Shown here piece after piece: positions 8,592 to 64,000 of a stretch of 64,000 nt of DNA (position 1 is the first letter of the stretch; every line of letters starts with the position of its first letter). This stretch comes from an uncultured virus (IMG/VR IMGVR_UViG_3300025383_000020) (Duplodnaviria > Heunggongvirae > Uroviricota > Caudoviricetes). A model generated the notes under the pieces. It had not been told where the DNA came from and made no database searches. It was given only the letters and a program-made list of their open reading frames with translations. The position numbers and the translations under genes were made by a program. The DNA lies in IMG/VR virus record IMGVR_UViG_3300025383_000020; one strand, given 5' to 3'.

Positions 8592-8620
8592 GCGATACAC
8601 TAAAAGTATATCGCTTATTG

Positions 8621-9035
8621 TGGACCGGGTGGGAGTTGAACCCACGTCTTGCTCGACTAGTAGAAAGGACTCATTCACAAGCTTACTCAGTTTACGACAC
8701 TGACAAACTTTTTGGTTTTCGGGGTAGTTTATGAAGAGTTTCCTTCTCTTCCTCATGACGGCTATCTACATGCCTACACGTCTTTCCGTAGTGTCTTCTG
8801 GCTTCCGATCTATTGATCGTACCTCCAATTTGTGACTTTCTGTTCCTAGGCAGTCACCGCCCGGTGCTTAGGCAGCTATTGCTACTTCTGCGCCAACGAA
8901 AGACATTGCGTCTTCGAAGGTAAATGTTGACTTAGCGTCGTTTGTATTCTGCATTGGGGATTAACGAGTTTCAATGCTAACTCAGCTTGCATCATCTCAA
9001 TGAACTAACGCCGCCAATCAATACCCGGCCGGCCC
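8621..9035 (-). ncRNA. ssrA: tmRNA
   Basis: 5' GGGCCGG pairs with 3' CCGGTCC-A (G3:U70 Ala identity); T-arm GTGGGTTCAACTCCCAC; internal tag frame ending ...EVAIAA-stop (8868-8939). Confidence 0.93.
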
Positions 9036-14094: not shown

Positions 14095-14721
14095 ATGGGA
14101 TATGAGAAAATTAATCTGATCAACAACGCAAGAATCCAAGAAATTTCAGAAAAACTACTAACCAGCGAAATAACAGAAAGAGAAAGAAACGAATTAGCAA
14201 CTCTAATCTCTCCAAAGCTTAAAAACTTCATCTGGAAATTCTGTAGAAATGAATTTGATACTGAGGAATCTCTTCAGTGGACTCTAAAAAAGATCTTCAA
14301 AAACGCTTCGCAATTCGATTTTAGTAAAGGCAGGTTTACTACCTGGATATACACGATTGCAAGAAACGAAACCTTGTATTACCTACATTACAAGAAGAAG
14401 AGCTCGGTGCAAGACATAGACGCTCACTATTCTGTTCAAGAAAGAATAGCAGATGATGGGTCTATTATTGAAAGCAAAAAATTACTGGATGACATTTATG
14501 ATGTTGTCGTCCATGAGATCAATCAAATAGAGGATGACCTCTTAAGATCCATTGCAGTTGATAAAATGCTACTTAACAAGAAAGTAAAGCAGATCGCAAG
14601 TGATTATGAGCTAAATGAGAACACCGTTAAAACTAAACTGCGTAAGATACGTTACGATGTTCGATTAGCTGTACTCAAGGGAAATCCACAACTTGAGCAA
14701 AAAATACAAGACTTATTATGA
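14095..14721 (+). CDS. ECF-like RNA polymerase sigma factor
   Basis: region 2 FDFSKGRFTTWIYTIARN; region 4 KQIA...NENTVKTKL. Confidence 0.85.
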   Translation: MGYEKINLINNARIQEISEKLLTSEITERERNELATLISPKLKNFIWKFCRNEFDTEESLQWTLKKIFKNASQFDFSKGRFTTWIYTIARNETLYYLHYKKKSSVQDIDAHYSVQERIADDGSIIESKKLLDDIYDVVVHEINQIEDDLLRSIAVDKMLLNKKVKQIASDYELNENTVKTKLRKIRYDVRLAVLKGNPQLEQKIQDLL

Positions 14722-40611: not shown

Positions 40612-41496
40612 TTAAAATGAATTTATTGAAGCAAGGATCTCGTCTTGTGAAAAGACGTTTAGATCAAATACCGGACACTCGTGCAGAGCTCCATGGAATG
40701 AGTAGTCAAATAAATAACTGTCAGGTAACTTCACGTCTTCTGGCAGGTTGGCCTTTATGTTATTGTGAATTGAGTAGCCAAAAAGTTCTGGAGAAGTTCC
40801 AACCCAGAGAACTGTCGAAGGTAGATTTAGAGCCGATGCTGCGTGTTGGAGCGATGAATCGATTAAGACTCGCTTTGTTGAAACAAGCAACATTGTAAAG
40901 AGCTCAATATTTGAAAGTTGACCCGAAACTACTTCTGTTCCTGGAATGACCTGTGCTGGATCTCTACACACTTGAATTATGTGGTAGCTCTTGGAAAATT
41001 CCTGTACTATTCTATTTGCAATCAAAGGCGGCATGTCTCTACACCATGAATAAGGATAAGGTTGATTTTTCATGGGTCCACCGTTAGTGTGTAGGATCAT
41101 TACTGGACGATCCCTTCTCCACTTATTGATTCCATATTGAGTCTGTCTAATGTTGAAAGAAAGAGTCGGCATCTCACCAGAATAGGTCAGGTTGTATAGC
41201 TTACACCAATTCGCAATAAGAGGCATCGTCTTGCTAATGTGATCCGTCGTGTAATACGGCTCGTGCTTAAATATAAGAGTGTCCTTGCCTTTAATGTAGT
41301 CCTGATAGAAGTAGGGCGTGTTGCCTATTCTATACACTCGACTAACTGATGGCATGTTTAAGAAAACTTCAGGATAGGCACAAACCACGATTAGCTCACG
41401 ATCAGGGTGGTTATTTTTAATACACTGCGCGACTGCTGTTGCTGCAACGTGTTTACCGAGGCCTCCTTCGATATGAAAAAGAGAATATTTGCTCAT
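40612..41496 (-). CDS. GT9 (heptosyltransferase-like) glycosyltransferase
   Basis: GGLGK, IDSSLQHAASAL..PS.VLW..T.P..FGY. Confidence 0.75.
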   Translation of the reverse strand: MSKYSLFHIEGGLGKHVAATAVAQCIKNNHPDRELIVVCAYPEVFLNMPSVSRVYRIGNTPYFYQDYIKGKDTLIFKHEPYYTTDHISKTMPLIANWCKLYNLTYSGEMPTLSFNIRQTQYGINKWRRDRPVMILHTNGGPMKNQPYPYSWCRDMPPLIANRIVQEFSKSYHIIQVCRDPAQVIPGTEVVSGQLSNIELFTMLLVSTKRVLIDSSLQHAASALNLPSTVLWVGTSPELFGYSIHNNIKANLPEDVKLPDSYLFDYSFHGALHECPVFDLNVFSQDEILASINSF

Positions 41497-41710
41497 TTTT
41501 TAATAAATAATTTTTTAGATTGCTAAATTTATGGTATATTAAAAATCATCTAACCAAAAAATGTTAACCTTTATGCTACTTATTATACTTAGAAAGGCTT
41601 ATGGGTTCTTTGAGCTTAATTGCGGATGGTTCTTTGTGAACGGTCGCAAGCGTGAAGCATGGAATAGATACATCGCTAAAAAATACAAAAGTAAAAATTT
41701 TTAAGAAAAA

Positions 41711-41745
41711 AGTGAAACTTAAGTCAAACCTTAAGTATAAATAAC
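41711..41745 (+). promoter_or_regulatory. tRNA-block promoter AAGTGAAACT-N15-GTATAAATAA (1)
   Basis: identical bipartite motif before three tRNA blocks. Confidence 0.7.
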
Positions 41746-41764
41746 AAAAAACGAAACATCTTCA

Positions 41765-41902
41765 ATGCTATTCAATAAAAATATGATCCTAGTTATCGAT
41801 TTCCAAGTGGAGACGGGGATAGATCGCATTGATAATGACGTGAGTTAAGAAAAGTTCTAATAAAGAAAAGAACCTCAACTCACACCGAGTTGAGGTTTTT
41901 TA
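41765..41902 (+). promoter_or_regulatory. attenuator-like leader 1: 27-aa uORF plus terminator
   Basis: uORF 41765-41848; hairpin AACCTCAACTC/GAGTTGAGGTT+T run; GTGAGTT can pair with AACTCAC. Confidence 0.55.
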
Positions 41903-41909
41903 TTTTTAT

Positions 41910-41982
41910 GGACCTGGCGCATAACGGCTGGTGTACCCGACTGTCTATCGGTGTTTAGAGGGTTCGACTCCCTTCAGGTCCG
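41910..41982 (+). tRNA. tRNA-Asp(GTC)
   Basis: cloverleaf, loop CTGTCTA. Confidence 0.88.
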
Positions 41983-42042
41983 CTAAAATACTTCACAGCA
42001 AAAGTCGTAAGTTCGAATGATAAATAATAAAAAGAAAGTATC

Positions 42043-42723
42043 ATGAAAACTTGCGAAAACTGTGGAAAAGATCACACTGGAGAATACGGAAGTGGTCGAT
42101 TTTGTTCTTTGAAATGCTCTAGGGGATTTAGTACTAAAGGTAAGAGAAGTGAAATCAATAAAAAGGTATCAGCTGCTCTTAGCAATAGTGGGAACACTCC
42201 AGTCAAAAAAAGTTGCAAGTTATGTAAGAATGAATTTGCTGTTGCTTGGAATAAGCGTAGGCAAATGTATTGTTCATCTTCATGCGCAGCAAAAGATATT
42301 GGTTGGAAAAATAGTCATTCTAAAATCTCAAAGAGCAAGTGGTCTGAAATAAACAAAAGATCTTATGCTTTAGGTAAAAATCGAATTGCTGGTGGAACTA
42401 CCAAGTGGCTCAATTACAAAGACATAAAAGTTCAAGGAACGTATGAACTCGCTGCTTGTAAAAAGCTAGATCTACTTAAAGAAAGAGGTGAAATTTTTAA
42501 ATGGGAATATGCAGTAAATCGAATATCCTATATAGGGATCGATAGAAAAAAGCACACATACTTAATTGATTTTACAGTTACACTACCTGATGGAAGTATT
42601 AAGTTCATCGAAGTTAAGGGAAGAGAAACTGATAATGATAAACTAAAGTGGAATGCGGTAAGAGAAGCGGGACATACTCTTGAAGTATGGAGAAAATTTG
42701 ATTTATTATCTAAAGTTCTTTAA
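42043..42723 (+). CDS. free-standing Zn-finger + PD-(D/E)XK endonuclease (homing-like)
   Basis: CENC/FCSLKC, CKLC/YCSSSC; YLIDF...FIEVKG; sits between tRNAs. Confidence 0.7.
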   Translation: MKTCENCGKDHTGEYGSGRFCSLKCSRGFSTKGKRSEINKKVSAALSNSGNTPVKKSCKLCKNEFAVAWNKRRQMYCSSSCAAKDIGWKNSHSKISKSKWSEINKRSYALGKNRIAGGTTKWLNYKDIKVQGTYELAACKKLDLLKERGEIFKWEYAVNRISYIGIDRKKHTYLIDFTVTLPDGSIKFIEVKGRETDNDKLKWNAVREAGHTLEVWRKFDLLSKVL

Positions 42724-42888: not shown

Positions 42889-43053
42889 AGTCAGTAGTAA
42901 CGTGAGAGTTACTTCGAAATCCATTATCAGGACGGTGTCGGTGGTTCGAATCCATCTCTCCCCACTAAGAAGAAATTCTTAATTTTTAACTTGGGGAGAT
43001 AGCTCAGCTGGTAGAGCACGTAAAAGAAAAATCTCTCGCAACTTTCTCTGACT
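42889..43053 (+). ncRNA. Y RNA (YrlA-like) 1, permuted tRNA body
   Basis: conserved TAGTAAC..AGAGTTACTTC stem; T-arm precedes acceptor and D-arm; upstream of TROVE. Confidence 0.75.
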
Positions 43054-43563: not shown

Positions 43564-45189
43564 ATGGCAAAATTTAGAAACCAAAATCTTCGCAACACGC
43601 TCGCTGGTATGCAGCCTGATGCGAAGCTGGTTGAAGCAGCAACCCTGCCTAAGCCAGACACCAAGAACCGTCAAGGTCACGCAGCTTATTCTATGGATAA
43701 GTGGCTTCACCTCTTGACAATGCTAAACACTCTCAAACTCGAGAACCAGTTTTATCGTTCTGAAAACGAAACGATGAAAGAGCTCAAGGGTCTAGTGGAT
43801 GTTTGTGCAAAGGAAGACGCTTATCTAGTAGCACAGTGCATCGTGTATTCACGTTGCGTCGGTGAAGGTATGCGTTCAGTAAACCACCTAGCCGCAAGCT
43901 ACCTTGCACCACACTGTGCAGGAAAAGACTGGGCAAAGCGTTTCTACTCACTGTGGAACAAGAAGACTCAATCAGGCGGTACTATCTTCAGACCGGATGA
44001 CATGTCAGAAATTGTTGCTTGCTTCTCAGCAATGAACAAGACTGCTGTGACAAACGCAATGAAGAAAGGATTCAAGGATGCTCTTGAAAAGCTAGATGCA
44101 TACTCTCTATTGAAATACAAGGGAGATCTGATCGACGTTGCTAACCTAGTTCACCCTAACCCTAGCCTGTCAAAGGCAACGGCAAAGGTTGATAGCGAAA
44201 AGGTCTCAGTGCTTTCAGCGATCATGAAGGGCTTGCCAGTGTCAGCCGACACTTGGGAAGTTGCTCAGTCTGATGCAGGTCAAGAAGTTGCAAAGGCCGT
44301 AAAGGCAGGTAAGCTTACTGAAACTCAAGCGGAAAAAGTCCTAAAGGAAGCTAAGGCTGAAAACTGGAACGCTCTCTTGACAGAAGGAAAGCTGGGTATC
44401 CTTGCAGCACTTCGCAACATCAGAAACATCATAACAAATGATGCAAAGGCTGCGGCAATCACTGCACTATGCGATCTACTTTCTGATGGCGTAGCGATCC
44501 GTAAGGGAAAGATCATGCCGTACCAAATCGATATGGCTCACGAAGTCCTAACCTCTGAGTTCAGCAACATGGAATCTCGTAAGATCGCTCAAGCTCTTTT
44601 GAAGGGATACGAAGCGGCAGTGCCGAACCTAGCAGAAATGCTTCCTGGCAGAAACCTGATCATGGTTGACTTTTCTGGATCTATGGGTACACAAGTAGTC
44701 GATCCAAACAAGAAGACACGATACAAGAGCTCATGCTTGGATAAGGCAGCGCTGATTGCAGCAACGATAGCAAAAGCAACAAACGCGGATATTATTCGCT
44801 TTGGATCTGATGCAGAGTACGCTAAATACAATGCAAATGCAGACGTCTTCACTATTGCTAACGCAATGAAGAGAGACATGGGAGGAACAAGCCTTGAAAC
44901 TGCATGGAATGTAGCTCAAAGATCTGGCACAAAGTACGATAGAGTATTCATACTCTCAGATAACGAATGTAACCGTGGCTCAAGCTACAAGGCATACGAA
45001 AGATATGTCAAGGCATGCGGAAGCCCATACGTTTACTCAGTGGATCTAGCCGCATACGGAACAGCTCAACTCGCAGGAGATAAGGTTCGTTTCTACTACG
45101 GCTACGGATACTCAATGTTCGATGACATCGCGAAGAGCGAGTTCAACCCGAACTACCACCTCGAAAAGGTGAAGAAGATTGTGATCTAA
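43564..45189 (+). CDS. rsr: Ro60/Rsr TROVE-vWA RNA-binding protein
   Basis: NRQGH.AY, GMRSV, RPDDM, KYK, HP, TWE, AALRNIRN, vWA MIDAS VDFSGSM, GGT, ILSDNE. Confidence 0.9.
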   Translation: MAKFRNQNLRNTLAGMQPDAKLVEAATLPKPDTKNRQGHAAYSMDKWLHLLTMLNTLKLENQFYRSENETMKELKGLVDVCAKEDAYLVAQCIVYSRCVGEGMRSVNHLAASYLAPHCAGKDWAKRFYSLWNKKTQSGGTIFRPDDMSEIVACFSAMNKTAVTNAMKKGFKDALEKLDAYSLLKYKGDLIDVANLVHPNPSLSKATAKVDSEKVSVLSAIMKGLPVSADTWEVAQSDAGQEVAKAVKAGKLTETQAEKVLKEAKAENWNALLTEGKLGILAALRNIRNIITNDAKAAAITALCDLLSDGVAIRKGKIMPYQIDMAHEVLTSEFSNMESRKIAQALLKGYEAAVPNLAEMLPGRNLIMVDFSGSMGTQVVDPNKKTRYKSSCLDKAALIAATIAKATNADIIRFGSDAEYAKYNANADVFTIANAMKRDMGGTSLETAWNVAQRSGTKYDRVFILSDNECNRGSSYKAYERYVKACGSPYVYSVDLAAYGTAQLAGDKVRFYYGYGYSMFDDIAKSEFNPNYHLEKVKKIVI

Positions 45190-45273: not shown

Positions 45274-45400
45274 ATCAGGTAGCAACGTAAGAGTTACTTC
45301 GTAGTGCAATTGGTAGCACAATTTTTTTGGGAAAAATGGGTTGCGGGTTCAATCCCCGTCGAGCGGCGAAAGCCGAATACTCTTACACTTTCCTCCTGAT
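45274..45400 (+). ncRNA. Y RNA-like 2, unpermuted D-AC(TGG)-T body
   Basis: ATCAGG/CCTGAT closing stem, shared motif, tRNA arms in normal order. Confidence 0.75.
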
Positions 45401-46294: not shown

Positions 46295-46329
46295 AAGTGA
46301 AACTCTATTTGAGTTTGGTGTATAAATAA
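46295..46329 (+). promoter_or_regulatory. tRNA-block promoter (2)
   Basis: AAGTGAAACT-N15-GTATAAATAA. Confidence 0.7.
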
Positions 46330-46336
46330 TAAAGTA

Positions 46337-46512
46337 ATGAAAAACTATCGTAACATATCAAATCACTCATGCAGCTGGAATCACATTCCAACAGGAGTGA
46401 AGTTTGTGTCTACACTAAAATCAACTGGTGCAGGAAAAAACGAGGTTCGAATAAGTTAACAGTAAAAATAACTATATAGAGAACCTCGAACCACAAAAGT
46501 TCGAGGTTTTTT
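46337..46512 (+). promoter_or_regulatory. attenuator-like leader 2: 40-aa uORF plus terminator
   Basis: uORF 46337-46459; hairpin AACCTCGAAC/GTTCGAGGTT+T run; CGAGGTTC can pair with GAACCTCG. Confidence 0.6.
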
Positions 46513-46518
46513 GTTTAT

Positions 46519-47827: not shown

Positions 47828-47862
47828 AAGTGAAACTCTTTAGTAAAATATTGTATAAATAA
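47828..47862 (+). promoter_or_regulatory. tRNA-block promoter (3), followed by 31-aa uORF 47887-47982
   Basis: AAGTGAAACT-N15-GTATAAATAA. Confidence 0.7.
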
Positions 47863-48083
47863 CTAAGACTATTAAAGTCAAACAAAATGAAAAAGCAAGC
47901 CTACATACGAATTTATAGACCGTGCCAACCGTTAGCATGGCAGCTAGGCTTGTCGAATCATAATTCACTAAGCCGATTCTGATCCCCTGGCCAGTGAATA
48001 TCTCAAATCCATAATTTTACACAACCGATTTTAGGAATGCACTGGCCTCTAGTAGGAAGGCTTAATAATGTTCTTTGAATATT

Positions 48084-48158
48084 GGTCCCTTAGCTCAGAT
48101 GGTTAGTAGCATCTGACTCATAATCAGAGGGTCACTGGTTCAAGTCCAGTAGGGACCA
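48084..48158 (+). tRNA. tRNA-Ile2/Met(CAT)
   Basis: cloverleaf; GGTCCCT acceptor resembles lysidine tRNA-Ile2. Confidence 0.85.
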
Positions 48159-58146: not shown

Positions 58147-59025
58147 ATGATGAAACACATACAAATATCAGCTGACCGAAAACTAAATAAGCTGAAGGGT
58201 ACTAACACCTATTTTAATGAGATTGACCGAATCAAGAGATTAACTATCGACCAGGAAGTTGACCTGGCAACCAGAGCAAAAGCCGGCGACAAGGCCGCGA
58301 TGGACAAGCTGATCGAGGCAAACCTCAAGTTCGTGGTGTCAGTAGCAAAAAATTACACATCAGATCCAGTCCTAGTGCAGGAGCTCATTGCCCAAGGCAA
58401 TATCGGAATTATCCGTGCAGCGCAAAAATTTGATCCTACTCGCGGATTCAAGTTCATAACGTATGCAGTTTTCTGGATTCGTAACGAGATTCTTGAATAC
58501 TACCTAAAGTACAATAGAGTGGTTCACCTGCCGTTGCACGTCGAAAACGACCTTAGAAAGGTAAAAAGGGTGCAGGCAAAGCTTGAACAAAAGTTTGATC
58601 GAACCCCTACCTTAAACGAAATCGAAGATGAGCTAATCAAAATAGGAGAGCCGATTGATCTGGACAAGCTTAGACTCATACTTGAAGTAAAGGATCATGC
58701 CGTGCCCCTAGTGACTGACGACCCTGAGTCATACGATCCAATCGAGTGGATAGAGGTCAAGTCAGAGACTGAAGTGACGATGCAACAGCTTGAATTTAGG
58801 GAAAAGATCGACGAGATACTTGAGGTACTCAGCCCAGACGAGAGGTCAATTGTGAGAAAGAGGCATGGATTTGACGGGTACGGCCCAATGGAATTTGAAG
58901 CGATTGGGATCCAGCACGGAAAAGGCACAGGTTGGGCAAGTCAGAGATATGCGATAGCGATGCGAAAAATGAGGGCTAAGCTCCACTTGATAAATTCATC
59001 AGAAGAGATCACTTTTTCTCTATAA
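58147..59025 (+). CDS. sigma70-family (RpoD/RpoS-like) sigma factor
   Basis: ANLKFVVSVAK.Y, GNIG..RAA.KFDP.RGFKFITYAVFWIR, region 4. Confidence 0.92.
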   Translation: MMKHIQISADRKLNKLKGTNTYFNEIDRIKRLTIDQEVDLATRAKAGDKAAMDKLIEANLKFVVSVAKNYTSDPVLVQELIAQGNIGIIRAAQKFDPTRGFKFITYAVFWIRNEILEYYLKYNRVVHLPLHVENDLRKVKRVQAKLEQKFDRTPTLNEIEDELIKIGEPIDLDKLRLILEVKDHAVPLVTDDPESYDPIEWIEVKSETEVTMQQLEFREKIDEILEVLSPDERSIVRKRHGFDGYGPMEFEAIGIQHGKGTGWASQRYAIAMRKMRAKLHLINSSEEITFSL

Positions 59026-60684: not shown

Positions 60685-61290
60685 TTATCGCCAGTCAAAC
60701 TTGAGAAAGTCGGCAAGATTATTCGGATAGTTCGGGTGATTTAGGGCAGCGTAACTCACATAAGAGTCTGGGTCCTTTGCAAGCTGGACTAGGATCTCGC
60801 CTGGAGAGTTAGGATTCCCAGCGACCAGGAGACGTACGTCAGCCAATCGGTCCCCTGCAAGCTGGGCTAGGGTCGATTGTTCCGCGTTCTGGTGATTGGC
60901 AACCACCAATCTTACATCAAAGTCAGCGTCCTTTGCCAGGAGGCCCAGCACCTCGCCTGGAGAGTTAGGATTCTTGGCGACCATTATTCGAACAAGGTCG
61001 GACGGATCCTCTGCAAGCTGGATTAGAGACTCGACTGGAGCGTTAGGGTTCTGAGCGACTCTTACTCGTACCTGAAGGTCAAAGTCAGTTGCCAGCACGG
61101 CAAGGACTTTCTTTGGTGTGTTCTGGTGATTCGCGACGCCTGATCTTATATCAGGATTTGAGTCTGCTGCAAGCTCGACAAGAGTCTTCGCTGGAGTGTT
61201 AGGATTCCTCACAAGAGCATTGAGATCATCTACCGGATTCACATTTGATTCGAGCAAAAATTGGGAATATGATTTGATATGCATCTGCAT
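60685..61290 (-). CDS. LRV/HEAT-like 24-aa repeat protein 1
   Basis: VA.NPN.P...L..LA.D....VR repeats. Confidence 0.85.
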   Translation of the reverse strand: MQMHIKSYSQFLLESNVNPVDDLNALVRNPNTPAKTLVELAADSNPDIRSGVANHQNTPKKVLAVLATDFDLQVRVRVAQNPNAPVESLIQLAEDPSDLVRIMVAKNPNSPGEVLGLLAKDADFDVRLVVANHQNAEQSTLAQLAGDRLADVRLLVAGNPNSPGEILVQLAKDPDSYVSYAALNHPNYPNNLADFLKFDWR

Positions 61291-61298
61291 AGAGTTAT

Positions 61299-61889
61299 TT
61301 ATCGCCAGTCAAACTTAAGCCAGTCAGCTAGATTATTAGGATAGTTCGGGTGTTCTTGAGCCGCCTGGCTCACTTTAGGCTGTAAATCCTTTGCTAGCTG
61401 AAGTAGGGTCTCGATAGGCACGTTAGGATTCTGGGCGACTCCCTTTCGTACACTCCATATAGCGTCCTTTGCTAGCTGAAGTAGCGTCTCGTCTGAAGTG
61501 TTAGAGTTACTGGCAACGTGCCATCTCACATAAGAGTCTGGGTCCTGTGACAGGAGGGCAAGGGTCTCCGATGACGTGTTGGGATTTTCAGCTATAGCCA
61601 CTCTCACTCTAGTGTCCTTTTCCTTTGAGAGCTGAAGTAGAGCCTCAGCTGGAGTTTTCGGGTTCCGGGCGACACATCGTCTCACTTTAATTTCAGGGTC
61701 CGCTGCAAGCTGGGCTAGAGCCTCAGCCGGAGCGTTCGGGTTCCAGACGACTTCTAGTCGTACCTCCAACTCAGGGTCCTGTGAAAGTTTCATTAGGACA
61801 TCGGCTGGAGCATTAGGGTCCCTGGCTAGTGCCCGGTCCGAGTCATATTTCTCTAGTAGTAAACTTGAGTAAGGTTTAACGTACTTCAT
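61299..61889 (-). CDS. LRV/HEAT-like repeat protein 2
   Basis: same repeat and C-terminal cap. Confidence 0.85.
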   Translation of the reverse strand: MKYVKPYSSLLLEKYDSDRALARDPNAPADVLMKLSQDPELEVRLEVVWNPNAPAEALAQLAADPEIKVRRCVARNPKTPAEALLQLSKEKDTRVRVAIAENPNTSSETLALLSQDPDSYVRWHVASNSNTSDETLLQLAKDAIWSVRKGVAQNPNVPIETLLQLAKDLQPKVSQAAQEHPNYPNNLADWLKFDWR

Positions 61890-61897
61890 AGAATTAT

Positions 61898-62608
61898 TTA
61901 TCGCCAGTCGAACTTGAGAAAATCCGCTAGATTATTAGGATAGTTCGGGTGGTTTTGAGCCAAGTGTCTCACAACAGAGTCTGGGTCCTTTGCCAACTGG
62001 AGTAGAGACTCGATAGGCGCGTTAGGGTTCCCGGAGACTGCAATTCTTATAGAACGATCTGAGTTCTGTGAAAGTTTCGCTAGGATCTCCACTGGAGTAT
62101 TAGGATTCTCGGCGACCATAAAACGCACGTCACTGTCGGCATCCCGTGTAAGGTCCACTAGGGTCTCGGCCGGAGTGTTCGGGTTATTGGCTACGCCCTG
62201 TCTCACTTCATCGTCTTCATCCTCTGCAAGTTTCACTAGGGTCTCGGCCGGAGTGTTCGGGTTTTCAGCGACTCTAAATCTCACTTTATAGTCTCCATCC
62301 TCTGCAAGTTCCACTAGGGTCTCGGAAGGGAGCTTGGGACTCTCGGCGACCTTTCTTACGACATCGGGGTCGGAGTCTCGTAAAAGTTTGACAAGGGTCC
62401 TGGGTTCAGTTGCTGGGTGCTTGGCGACCAACCAGCGAATCAAGGCCATGGGGCTGCTGGCCAGGTGGTGTAGGTCCTCGGCATCCACTCTTGGCGAATT
62501 GATAAACTCACGGATCTTGCCGAGCTCTTCGTCAGTTGGATTAGTGATATTGAACTCAAGGCGAGACTCAAGCAAAAATTGTGAATATGATTTGACGTGT
62601 AGCTTCAT
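61898..62608 (-). CDS. LRV/HEAT-like repeat protein 3
   Basis: same repeat and cap. Confidence 0.85.
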   Translation of the reverse strand: MKLHVKSYSQFLLESRLEFNITNPTDEELGKIREFINSPRVDAEDLHHLASSPMALIRWLVAKHPATEPRTLVKLLRDSDPDVVRKVAESPKLPSETLVELAEDGDYKVRFRVAENPNTPAETLVKLAEDEDDEVRQGVANNPNTPAETLVDLTRDADSDVRFMVAENPNTPVEILAKLSQNSDRSIRIAVSGNPNAPIESLLQLAKDPDSVVRHLAQNHPNYPNNLADFLKFDWR

Positions 62609-62619
62609 ATAAGATATAT

Positions 62620-63369
62620 TTATCGCCAGTCAAACTTGAGAAAGTCGGCAAGATTATTAGGATAGTTCGGGTGTTCTTGAGCCTTTTGGCTCACTTTAGG
62701 GTCCGGGTCCTCTGCCAGTTGGAGTAGGGTCTTGATGGGAGTGTTTGGGTTCCTGGCGACAACTCGTCTCAGACTAGCGTCCCCATTTGCTGCAAGCTGG
62801 ACAAGGGTCTCCACTGACACGTTAGGGTGCTCGACGACTCTCCATAGCACACGGTAATCGTCGTCCTCTGCAAGTTCAGCTAGGACCTCGGCGGGAGTCT
62901 TTAGGTTATCGGCGACGTTCCGTCTTACTTCACTGTCTCTATTCCTTGCAAGGTCCATCAGGATCTCCACTGGCGTGTTAGGGTTCTCAGCGACGCCACA
63001 TCTCACCAAATAGTATCTGTCCGCTGCAAGCTGGGCTAGAGTCTCCACTGGAGTGTTATGATTTCGGGCGACGTTCCGTCTTACGTCAGAGTCTGGGTCA
63101 CGTGCAAGGTCAATTAGGGTCTCCACTGGAGTGTTAGGGTTCGAGGCGACCCTCCATCTCACTTCAATTTCAGGGTCCTTTGCAAGCTGGACAAGGGTCT
63201 TGATGGGAGAGTTATGATTCCTGGCGACTCCTTCTCTCACTTTAACTTTAGGGTCCTTTGCAAGCTGGACAAGGGTCTCCACTGGAGTGTTAGGATCTTG
63301 GGCGACGTCCTCTCTTGACCGGTCTGATTGCTCTAGTAATAAGCTTGTGTAAGGCTTTACGTGCTTCAT
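62620..63369 (-). CDS. LRV/HEAT-like repeat protein 4
   Basis: start reassigned to MKHVKP. Confidence 0.85.
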   Translation of the reverse strand: MKHVKPYTSLLLEQSDRSREDVAQDPNTPVETLVQLAKDPKVKVREGVARNHNSPIKTLVQLAKDPEIEVRWRVASNPNTPVETLIDLARDPDSDVRRNVARNHNTPVETLAQLAADRYYLVRCGVAENPNTPVEILMDLARNRDSEVRRNVADNLKTPAEVLAELAEDDDYRVLWRVVEHPNVSVETLVQLAANGDASLRRVVARNPNTPIKTLLQLAEDPDPKVSQKAQEHPNYPNNLADFLKFDWR

Positions 63370-63383
63370 ATAAGATATATTTA

Positions 63384-64000
63384 TCACCAGTCACCGAGCG
63401 CCCAGTCTGTAATATCTTCGGGAAAGTTTGGATTTTCTTCCGCTGCTTTGCGGACTCTCGGGTCGGAGTCCGCTGCAAGGTGGACGAGAGTCTCCTTTGG
63501 AGTATTAGGGTTCGAGGCGACTCCTTCTCTCACTTCAACTTCAGGGTCCTTTGCAAGCTGGACAAGGGTCTCCACTGGAGTGTTAGGGTTCCTGGCGACT
63601 CCTTCTCTCACTTCAACTTCAGGGTCCACTGCAAGCTGGACAAGGGTCTCCACTGGAGTGTTAGGGTTCGAGGCGACCATCCATCTTACACTAGAGTCTG
63701 AGTCCTTTGCAAGCTGGACAAGGGTCTTGATGGGAGAGTTATGATTCCTGGCGACTCCTCCTCTCACTTTAACTTTAGGGTCCACTGCAAGCTGGACAAG
63801 GGTCTCCACTGGAGTGTTAGGGTTCCAGGCGACCATCCATCTTACACGAGAGTCTGAGTCCTTTGCAAGCTGGACTAGGGTCTTGATGGGAGAGTTAGGA
63901 TTCTTGGCGACACTATGTCTCACATGAAATTCTGAGTCCCCTGCAATCTGGGCAAGGGTCTCGATGGGAGTGTTAGGGTTCCAGGCGACAATATGTCTCA
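63384..64000 (-). CDS. LRV/HEAT-like repeat protein 5 (5' partial), near-identical 72-bp tandem repeats
   Basis: frame open to window end. Confidence 0.85.
   Translation of the reverse strand, partial: RHIVAWNPNTPIETLAQIAGDSEFHVRHSVAKNPNSPIKTLVQLAKDSDSRVRWMVAWNPNTPVETLVQLAVDPKVKVRGGVARNHNSPIKTLVQLAKDSDSSVRWMVASNPNTPVETLVQLAVDPEVEVREGVARNPNTPVETLVQLAKDPEVEVREGVASNPNTPKETLVHLAADSDPRVRKAAEENPNFPEDITDWALGDW

Follow-up and report, generated by a model that had tools for sequence, protein, structure and literature searches.

The stretch of DNA analysed here (64,000 nucleotides (nt), called the window below) comes from the uncultured virus IMGVR_UViG_3300025383_000020 and covers part of the genome of a large AT-rich phage that has come to light only in freshwater metagenomes. 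The window's 32 tRNA genes lie between positions 41909 and 51590, every one on the + strand, and it also has a transfer-messenger RNA (tmRNA) gene. Directly in front of the tRNA-Asp gene with which this block begins lies leader 1 (41711-41902), which consists of a promoter motif, a 27-codon open reading frame (ORF) and a strong terminator that ends 8 nt before tRNA-Asp. An original prediction, made from the letters of the window alone, had described these three elements, and by their coordinates, the fold and the tRNA score all of them are in place. The same prediction recognized in them the geometry of trp/his attenuation, with a ribosome choosing between antiterminator and terminator. Our results suggest that leader 1 is probably a ribosome-mediated (leader-peptide) transcription attenuator that gates tRNA-Asp.

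The terminator of leader 1 forms 15 pairs at 41867-41901 (-20.6 kcal/mol, z -8.4), about 8 nt ahead of the tRNA. The complementarity reported between the end of the ORF and this terminator was also found: GTGAGTT (41840-41846) is the exact reverse complement of AACTCAC (41877-41883). With two shorter helices it builds an alternative hairpin at 41838-41886 (GUGAGUU:AACUCAC, AG:CU and GUUCU:AGAAC) of -11.6 kcal/mol (z -4.07), which none of 200 shuffles equalled, and the leader region as a whole likewise folds better than shuffles (z -4.65). Folding predictions for transcripts cut before the terminator 3' arm showed the antiterminator 5' strand U paired with 41874-41883 at a probability of 0.67-1.0. 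As a control, we compared the 5' arm of terminators with their upstream 70 nt. An exact upstream complement of at least 7 nt occurred in 1 of 75 unrelated metagenomic terminators that have the same 5' arm, AACCTCAAC, and one of at least 6 nt in 5 of them; GTTGAG lay upstream in 1. Judged on the window alone, the complementarity of leader 1 is moderately beyond chance. Searches with the Rfam leader families (Trp, His, Leu, Thr, Phe) and the T-box model returned nothing over 41711-41902, at the gathering score or at E-values up to 1.

These elements suggest the following scheme. Transcription would start at the late-type promoter (-10 motif TATAAATAA, 41736-41744) and produce an untranslated leader of about 14 nt, without a Shine-Dalgarno sequence, followed by the ORF. 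The last two codons and the stop (GUGAGUU-A-AG) would pair with the upper half of the terminator 5' arm and the spacer helix would tie down its lower half, so that the antiterminator could form before the terminator 3' arm is made. A ribosome at the end of the ORF would cover the antiterminator strand; the terminator would then form and transcription would stop 8 nt before tRNA-Asp. Bacterial ribosomes extend about 12-13 nt beyond the A-site codon, and on this basis a ribosome waiting at codon 20 would end near codon 24 and leave codons 26-27 free, which would give antitermination and read-through into tRNA-Asp. With the ribosome anywhere from codon 23 to codon 27, or on the stop, the strand would be covered and the terminator would form. 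Translation of the ORF, its coupling to transcription in the host, a rise of read-through upon stalling and the decoding of Asp as the signal are inferred. If leader 1 is an attenuator, sensing of Asp and sensing of translation in general appear about equally probable.

Table 1. Features of leader 1, of its paralogue leader 2 and of selected genes, in positions of the window.
Feature	Position	Strand	Remarks
-35-like box GTGAAACT	41712-41719	+	16 nt upstream of the -10-like motif; putative function
Late-type promoter motif TATAAATAA	41736-41744	+	Invariant in 8/8 aligned family-A members
Leader 1 ORF, 27 codons + TAA, peptide MLFNKNMILVIDFQVETGIDRIDNDVS	41765-41848	+	
Small hairpin within the ORF (UUUCC-AAGU-GGAGA)	41800-41813	+	From RNAalifold on the family-A alignment
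Antiterminator 5' strand U (GUGAGUU + AG)	41840-41849	+	Spans the last two codons and the stop
Spacer helper helix, GUUCU (41854-41858) with AGAAC (41869-41873)	41854-41873	+	Ties up the base of the terminator 5' arm
Intrinsic terminator	41866-41908	+	5' arm 41866-41881, loop ACACC, 3' arm 41887-41901, then T-run
tRNA-Asp(GTC)	41909-41983	+	37.7 bits against Rfam tRNA; gene directly behind the putative leader 1 switch
Leader 2, paralogous module	46297-46518	+	Same promoter boxes; before tRNA-Val, Lys, Lys
Leader 2 ORF, 40 codons (MKNYRNISNHSCSWNHIPTGVKFVSTLKSTGAGKNEVRIS)	46337-46459	+	
Leader 2 pairing strand U, CGAGGUUC	46441-46448	+	Within the ORF end
Leader 2 terminator, stem AACCTCGAAC	46480-46510	+	
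Sigma factor, region 2 only, gp55-like	14095-14721		Built like T4 gp55
Ro/TROVE protein gene	43564-45189		
Full sigma-70	58147-59025		

The promoter motif of leader 1 has many counterparts in the window. The octamer ATAAATAA was found 30 times where 5.8 matches are expected, a number that none of 100 shuffles reached, and most copies are oriented like the gene they precede, 10-25 nt ahead of its start codon. Because it is enriched and placed just upstream of gene starts, we conclude from these positions that ATAAATAA is the phage's own promoter motif, to which 41736-41744 would belong. It matches the late consensus of phage T4, TATAAATA; the conserved motif and the gp55-like sigma factor with region 2 only would be compatible with a T4-type late promoter. 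In the window, TATAAATA alone is not enriched (4 found, 3.6 expected), nor is GTGAAACT with up to one mismatch (75 against 70), and a generic sigma-70 consensus scan gave no enrichment either (30 found, 31.2 expected). The GTGAAACT box stands at equal spacing before TATAAATAA also at 46297/46321 and 47830/47854, and the -35-like position in relatives holds GAAACT or AAAACT. No Shine-Dalgarno sequence precedes the leader ORF or the other genes of the phage; its absence at the leader ORF is uninformative, since the phage's genes generally lack one.

Relatives of leader 1 were recruited via the Ro protein and via the terminator alone, so that the antiterminator was not presupposed. The resulting family A has eleven distinct sequences including the window; the others lie on viral contigs (L079, L067, L070, L077, L076, L081 and L083) and in metagenomes (L143, L145 and L177). 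The ten relatives have TATAAATA 136-146 nt before the stem and a 27-28-codon ORF ending AGT-TGA-G, and in all eleven the promoter motif keeps this distance, the ORF of 27-28 codons ends AGT-stop-G and the gap from stop to stem is 22-28 nt. Frame 0 is open over 27-28 codons in 10/10 distinct relatives, indels are in frame, and each of the other frames contains 1-6 stops. Differences by codon position in ten codon-aligned members number 441/463/595, the third position having most, and synonymous exchange was seen at the conserved Glu (GAG/GAA), Gly (GGG/GGC/GGT) and Arg (CGY/AGA). Otherwise the peptide drifts fast, with 682 non-synonymous and 132 synonymous codon differences. By this pattern of changes, what is kept is apparently a frame for being translated, not for its product.

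Conservation of the frame bears directly on whether leader 1 is instead a non-coding RNA of about 155 nt, either a small RNA or a scaffold for the processing of tRNA precursors, in which the frame would be incidental and the alternative hairpin would be the RNA's own fold or a processing signal. We regard this as quite improbable, as the open frame in 10/10 relatives, the in-frame indels and the synonymous changes all speak against it and the element has no Rfam family match, even though the region folds better than shuffles (z -4.65) and the hairpin abuts the tRNA 5' end. Attenuator-derived small RNAs are known in bacteria (PMC6614838). The drift of the peptide, in turn, touches the view that a 27-residue micropeptide is encoded here by an ordinary late gene, with the tRNA served by other promoters or leak-through and the complementarity having no regulatory role. 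An own promoter motif and a strong terminator would suit such a gene, as would the promoter-like TATAAT that some relatives have between terminator and tRNA. The peptide is poorly conserved outside a few positions (682 non-synonymous against 132 synonymous differences) and the lengths range over 19-52 codons, and for these and the comparative reasons given below we consider a micropeptide gene unlikely.

Pairing of the stop region with the terminator 5' arm is conserved in the ten distinct relatives. For 8/8 family-A members, folding predictions that end the transcript ahead of the 3' arm join the 5'-arm core to the stop-codon region with a probability near 0.99. The pairing strand is AGUUGAG in ten members, that is, the Ser codon AGU, the stop UGA and the next G. 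In leader 1 the UAA stop breaks this register and a terminator extension, CUCAC, gives the 7-bp register instead; L143 is intermediate, with GAGUUGAG against CUCAACUC. Small spacer hairpins analogous to the helper helix of leader 1 are present in other members. Family A gives no covariation evidence on the pairing, because the terminator core (AACCTCAAC/GTTGAGGTT) never varies, being unchanged in 8/8 aligned members; RNAalifold on the family recovered only the terminator and the small hairpin within the ORF. The latter changes on both sides at 3/5 pairs and is a possible pause element.

Upstream of leader 1, a gene on the opposite strand (40612-41496) was matched by relatives at 26 loci of viral contigs; at only one of these, L001, does the tRNA block adjoin it. 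L001 has the whole module, comprising a homologue of the 41561-41704 ORF, TATAAATAA, a 28-codon ORF (MKAHKNMITLDFSLPVEVGTDRECLFRS), a terminator with the same core and tRNA-Asp. The ORF at 41561-41704, directly upstream of leader 1, is conserved and 47 residues long, with the motif GWFF[VI]NGxKREAW and no family match; its homologues occur in L001/L029 (74-90 amino acids) and L052 (39 amino acids). An exact search of viral contigs for the terminator of the window gave 0 matches. The pattern CTTCAATG-N9-AAAAATATGAT matched one true relative and L027, which was discarded after reading as a chance match. In the Met/Glu-first subgroup (L070, L077, L081, L083 and L177), a TATAAT- or TATTAT-like element (AGAGTATWATAA) lies 10-45 nt past the terminator, and the tRNAs of this subgroup may have a second, attenuator-independent promoter.

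The comparison was extended to perfect-stem terminators at large, with a census covering the window and 37 Ro-phage loci, from distantly T4-like freshwater phages. Of its 76 distinct sites, 23 lie no more than 120 nt ahead of a tRNA gene and 53 do not. The pre-tRNA stems are very unlike each other (CCGGGAC, CTTCGAT, CCCGAGT, CTCCGGATC, CCCCTTAG, CCCTGA, ACTCTGG and others). An exact upstream complement of at least 7 nt was found for 13/23 of them as compared to 4/53 of the other terminators (Fisher p 9e-6), and one of at least 6 nt for 17/23 as compared to 14/53. Among the 16 stem families viewed closely, a 19-52-codon ORF stands ahead of the tRNA gene in every one except the doubtful L044, where the only frame ending there has 77 codons, or 17 from GTG; this recurrence is a further point against a micropeptide gene. 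The stop keeps a distance of 20-37 nt from the stem across the superfamily leaders, and such constancy over very different sequences argues against a non-coding RNA with an incidental frame. Most leader ORFs start M-K-N-x-x-N-I-(S/L) whatever tRNAs follow (e.g. L030:637-709, L058:547-616 and window 46337-46459), which could reflect an initiation context, a nascent-chain effect or an RNA motif. These conserved positions and the N-terminal motif across the superfamily are what a micropeptide gene would have in its favour.

Two permutation tests were carried out on 15 representatives, chosen from 34 pre-tRNA terminators as one per leader/tRNA-set group. Five of 39 had been dropped before the codon test: L044, with no clear leader ORF; L097, L110 and L196, from unrelated contexts; and L161, which has the peptide of L067. 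In the arm-swap test we calculated the duplex energy of the 5'-arm core (its last 10 nt plus 3 loop nt) with the 70 nt upstream. Own pairs summed to -191.3 kcal/mol and swapped pairs to -116.4 +/- 9.4, and 0 of 200,000 permutations reached the own value; for leader 1 the own value was -11.0, the mean being -6.1. Fifty further terminators gave -6.96 own and -6.19 swapped per site, and the best of the 50 (L035 9874) proved to be another such leader, some 130 nt ahead of tRNA-Ser, Thr and Cys. In 15/15 representatives the pairing strand either overlaps the stop or lies in the final 1-14 codons of the ORF, and in 12/15 it lies in the final 8; most of the tRNA-matched codons are upstream of it.

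The second test used the fraction of leader codons readable by tRNAs up to 700 nt downstream. The sum over own tRNA sets was 3.54, against 2.14 +/- 0.27 for permuted sets, and again 0 of 200,000 permutations reached it. The match persisted when the cut-off was set to 150, 300 or 1500 nt (p 3e-4 to 1e-5), and it persisted without two possibly homologous modules and without the three best (p 3.6e-4). For example, 12 of 23 codons are matched in the leader MINISNILPLSLRPSIRRSTKVLC, which stands before Ser, Arg, Pro, Ile, Met and Leu tRNAs; the leader MKNLFHTTTSSSTSTSSCDEDTRALLRDR precedes Ser, Ser, Thr and Cys tRNAs. Of 160 residues in Asp-first leaders 14 are Asp, compared with 27 of 972 in other leaders, and Ser makes up 20% of Ser-first leaders against 9.7% elsewhere. 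Leader 1 has the highest share of Asp among the 15 representatives (4 Asp/26), with Asp codons at positions 12, 20, 23 and 25. The homologous leaders of L079, L067, L143 and L145 likewise have tRNA-Asp as the first gene behind them, and an Asp at about position 20-22 is kept in all five leaders that precede tRNA-Asp. A codon content that tracks the downstream tRNAs is not accounted for by a non-coding RNA, and a micropeptide gene would leave both this match and the own-arm complementarity unexplained.

The same results bear on the simplest alternative, that of a plain constitutive terminator with a 7-nt complement arising by chance. Complements of this length are not very rare in controls (1/75 and 4/53), and the lack of enrichment of TATAAATA alone (4 against 3.6) would agree with it. 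However, the element is kept in ten relatives, the complementarity recurs with unrelated stems and the alternative hairpin stands out from shuffles (z -4.07). Taken together, the comparative results argue strongly against a plain terminator, which we consider highly improbable.

A second stem family, paralogous to the first, is represented in the window itself by leader 2. Its ORF-end strand CGAGGUUC is complementary to GAACCUCG of its own stem, and the hairpin they form has -14.4 kcal/mol (z -4.6). Family B comprises leader 2 and eight further members; its stem, CTCGAA, differs from that of family A, and its ORF-end strand, CGAGGTTC, provides 8 bp, or 11 bp in L092. In L104 the two strands carry compensatory substitutions, C to T in one and G to A in its partner. 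CGAGGTT is invariant in 9/9 members and is read C-GAG-GTT in the window and CGA-GGT-T in the others; a pairing strand conserved at the nucleotide level in two reading frames does not fit a micropeptide gene. Membership of leader 2 in the Rfam family Thr_leader was rejected (29.9 bits against a cut-off of 55). A third copy of the promoter boxes (AAGTGAAACT-N16-TATAAATAA) lies in the region 47829-48083, followed by a 31-codon ORF (47887-47982), before tRNA-Met at 48084; about 100 nt of structured RNA (z -2.61) follow this ORF, and no canonical terminator was found there.

Collectively, conservation of the frame, co-variation of the ORF end with the terminator arm, the constant distance from stop to stem and the codon match lend strong comparative support to the core of the original prediction, an attenuator of trp/his-like geometry; the choice that a ribosome would make between the two hairpins is predicted from this geometry. 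Several observations weigh against an attenuator. The terminator of leader 1 is about 9 kcal/mol more stable than the antiterminator; the switch must therefore work kinetically, as in classical attenuators. Core pairing is only 6 bp in 6/11 family-A members. Leader 1 has no run of regulatory codons, and stalling at Asp codons 23 and 25 should place the ribosome over the nearby pairing strand. Leader 1 ranks only 6/15 in codon match when scored with its whole downstream tRNA set, and Phe-, Thr- and Met-first leaders are not enriched in their own amino acid. The N-terminal M-K-N-x-x-N-I-S pattern and the conserved Glu, Gly and Arg hint at a role for the peptide itself, and the generic sigma-70 scan does not call the leader 1 promoter. 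The L070 subgroup has its second promoter-like TATAAT between terminator and tRNA, so that the tRNA there need not depend on read-through. Finally, the modules are partly homologous and the representatives and ORFs were our own choice; owing to this kinship and choice, the permutation p-values overstate independence.

The original prediction had leader 1 gate the whole block of tRNAs, Ro gene and Y RNAs. This broad reach is not supported, as a late-type promoter motif, ATAAATAA, at 42020 precedes the HNH gene and further modules or promoters follow at 46297 and 47829. Control of Ro and Y RNAs by leader 1 is unsupported because of the later promoter at 42020, and from this arrangement of sequence elements it can be argued that leader 1 would gate only tRNA-Asp. 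The claim that induction would occur only upon stalling found no support either, and host tRNA cleavage, its example of a trigger, is likewise unsupported. The HNH gene is an insertion relative to L001 and L052, where the three tRNAs adjoin. It lies at 42043-42723, between tRNA-Asp and two tRNA-Met genes, and matches PHROG families of HNH or other endonucleases. Two candidate Y RNAs flank the Ro gene. The first, at 42911-43045 between the tRNA-Met pair and the Ro gene, is a sub-threshold match to YrlA, a Y RNA-like family (32.3 bits against a cut-off of 69); the second, at 45299-45362 just past the Ro gene, is a partial tRNA-like match (44.4 bits, model positions 5-66).

A wider feedback can be envisaged, in which each tRNA sub-cluster would be headed by a test frame composed of codons of its own tRNAs, leader 1 would be the Asp sensor and replacement tRNAs would be made on demand. 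With the cognate tRNAs in short supply, through a mismatch in codon usage or an anticodon-nuclease defence of the host, ribosomes would stall and the terminator would open. We put this forward tentatively, as a possibility with less than even chances.

The window encodes a T4-type terminase and a gp15 homologue. The sole blastn match to cultured phages is 173 nt long and lies under the gene upstream of leader 1, and tblastn with the Ro protein found no cultured relative above 33% identity; there is therefore no cultured model for this phage. The nearest record, G001, has no match to leader 1. The tmRNA is encoded at 8620-9035 on the - strand, with the tag peptide DAKSTFTFEDAMSFVGAEVAIAA. Five tandem genes for LRV/HEAT-repeat proteins lie at 60685-63923 on the - strand, and near-identical copies of GACTGGCGATAAATA were found upstream of three of them.

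In common with the trpL, hisL, pheL, thrL, leuL and ilv class I attenuators, leader 1 combines a short leader ORF with an intrinsic terminator and with an antiterminator that excludes this terminator and takes its 5' strand from the ORF end. As in amino-acid attenuators, leader codons fit the product, here at the level of the superfamily, and some phage leaders, such as TTTSSSTSTSSC before tRNA-Ser, Ser, Thr and Cys, resemble the multivalent thr/ilv leaders. In the trp leader, the antiterminator has about -12 and the terminator about -20 kcal/mol, the same order as in leader 1. In contrast to leader 1, amino-acid attenuators regulate biosynthetic enzymes; the phage leaders precede tRNA genes, so that what is sensed, decoding capacity, would be supplied by the product itself. 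Leader 1 also differs in having neither a run of regulatory codons nor a Shine-Dalgarno sequence, and no clear 1:2 protector helix was found in it. T-box riboswitches similarly couple tRNA status to the choice between terminator and antiterminator in genes of the translation apparatus. However, they bind uncharged tRNA directly and have no leader ORF, whereas leader 1 has a conserved ORF and no match to the T-box model. Slow translation of a short upstream ORF also switches on downstream expression in the whiB7 attenuator and in the erm and cat leader peptides. Unlike the proposed phage switch, these respond to drug-stalled ribosomes and regulate protein genes, and erm and cat act on translation initiation instead of a terminator.

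Attenuation is known for amino-acid genes. In the portions of the open-access and bioRxiv literature covered here, no paper deals with leader-peptide attenuation of tRNA genes, in phages or otherwise, and such control appears to be undescribed there. Why phages have tRNA genes of their own and how they put them to use is a long-standing question, made more pointed of late by work showing that phage tRNAs counter tRNA-cleaving host defences (PMC10264068, PMC11555353 and PMC11464382). If leader 1 works as proposed, the question would become directly testable, as the element is compact and portable, consisting of a promoter, 27 codons and two hairpins. The phage would then measure decoding capacity and adjust its tRNA supply, and the logic of classical attenuation would extend from the supply of amino acids to the supply of tRNAs.

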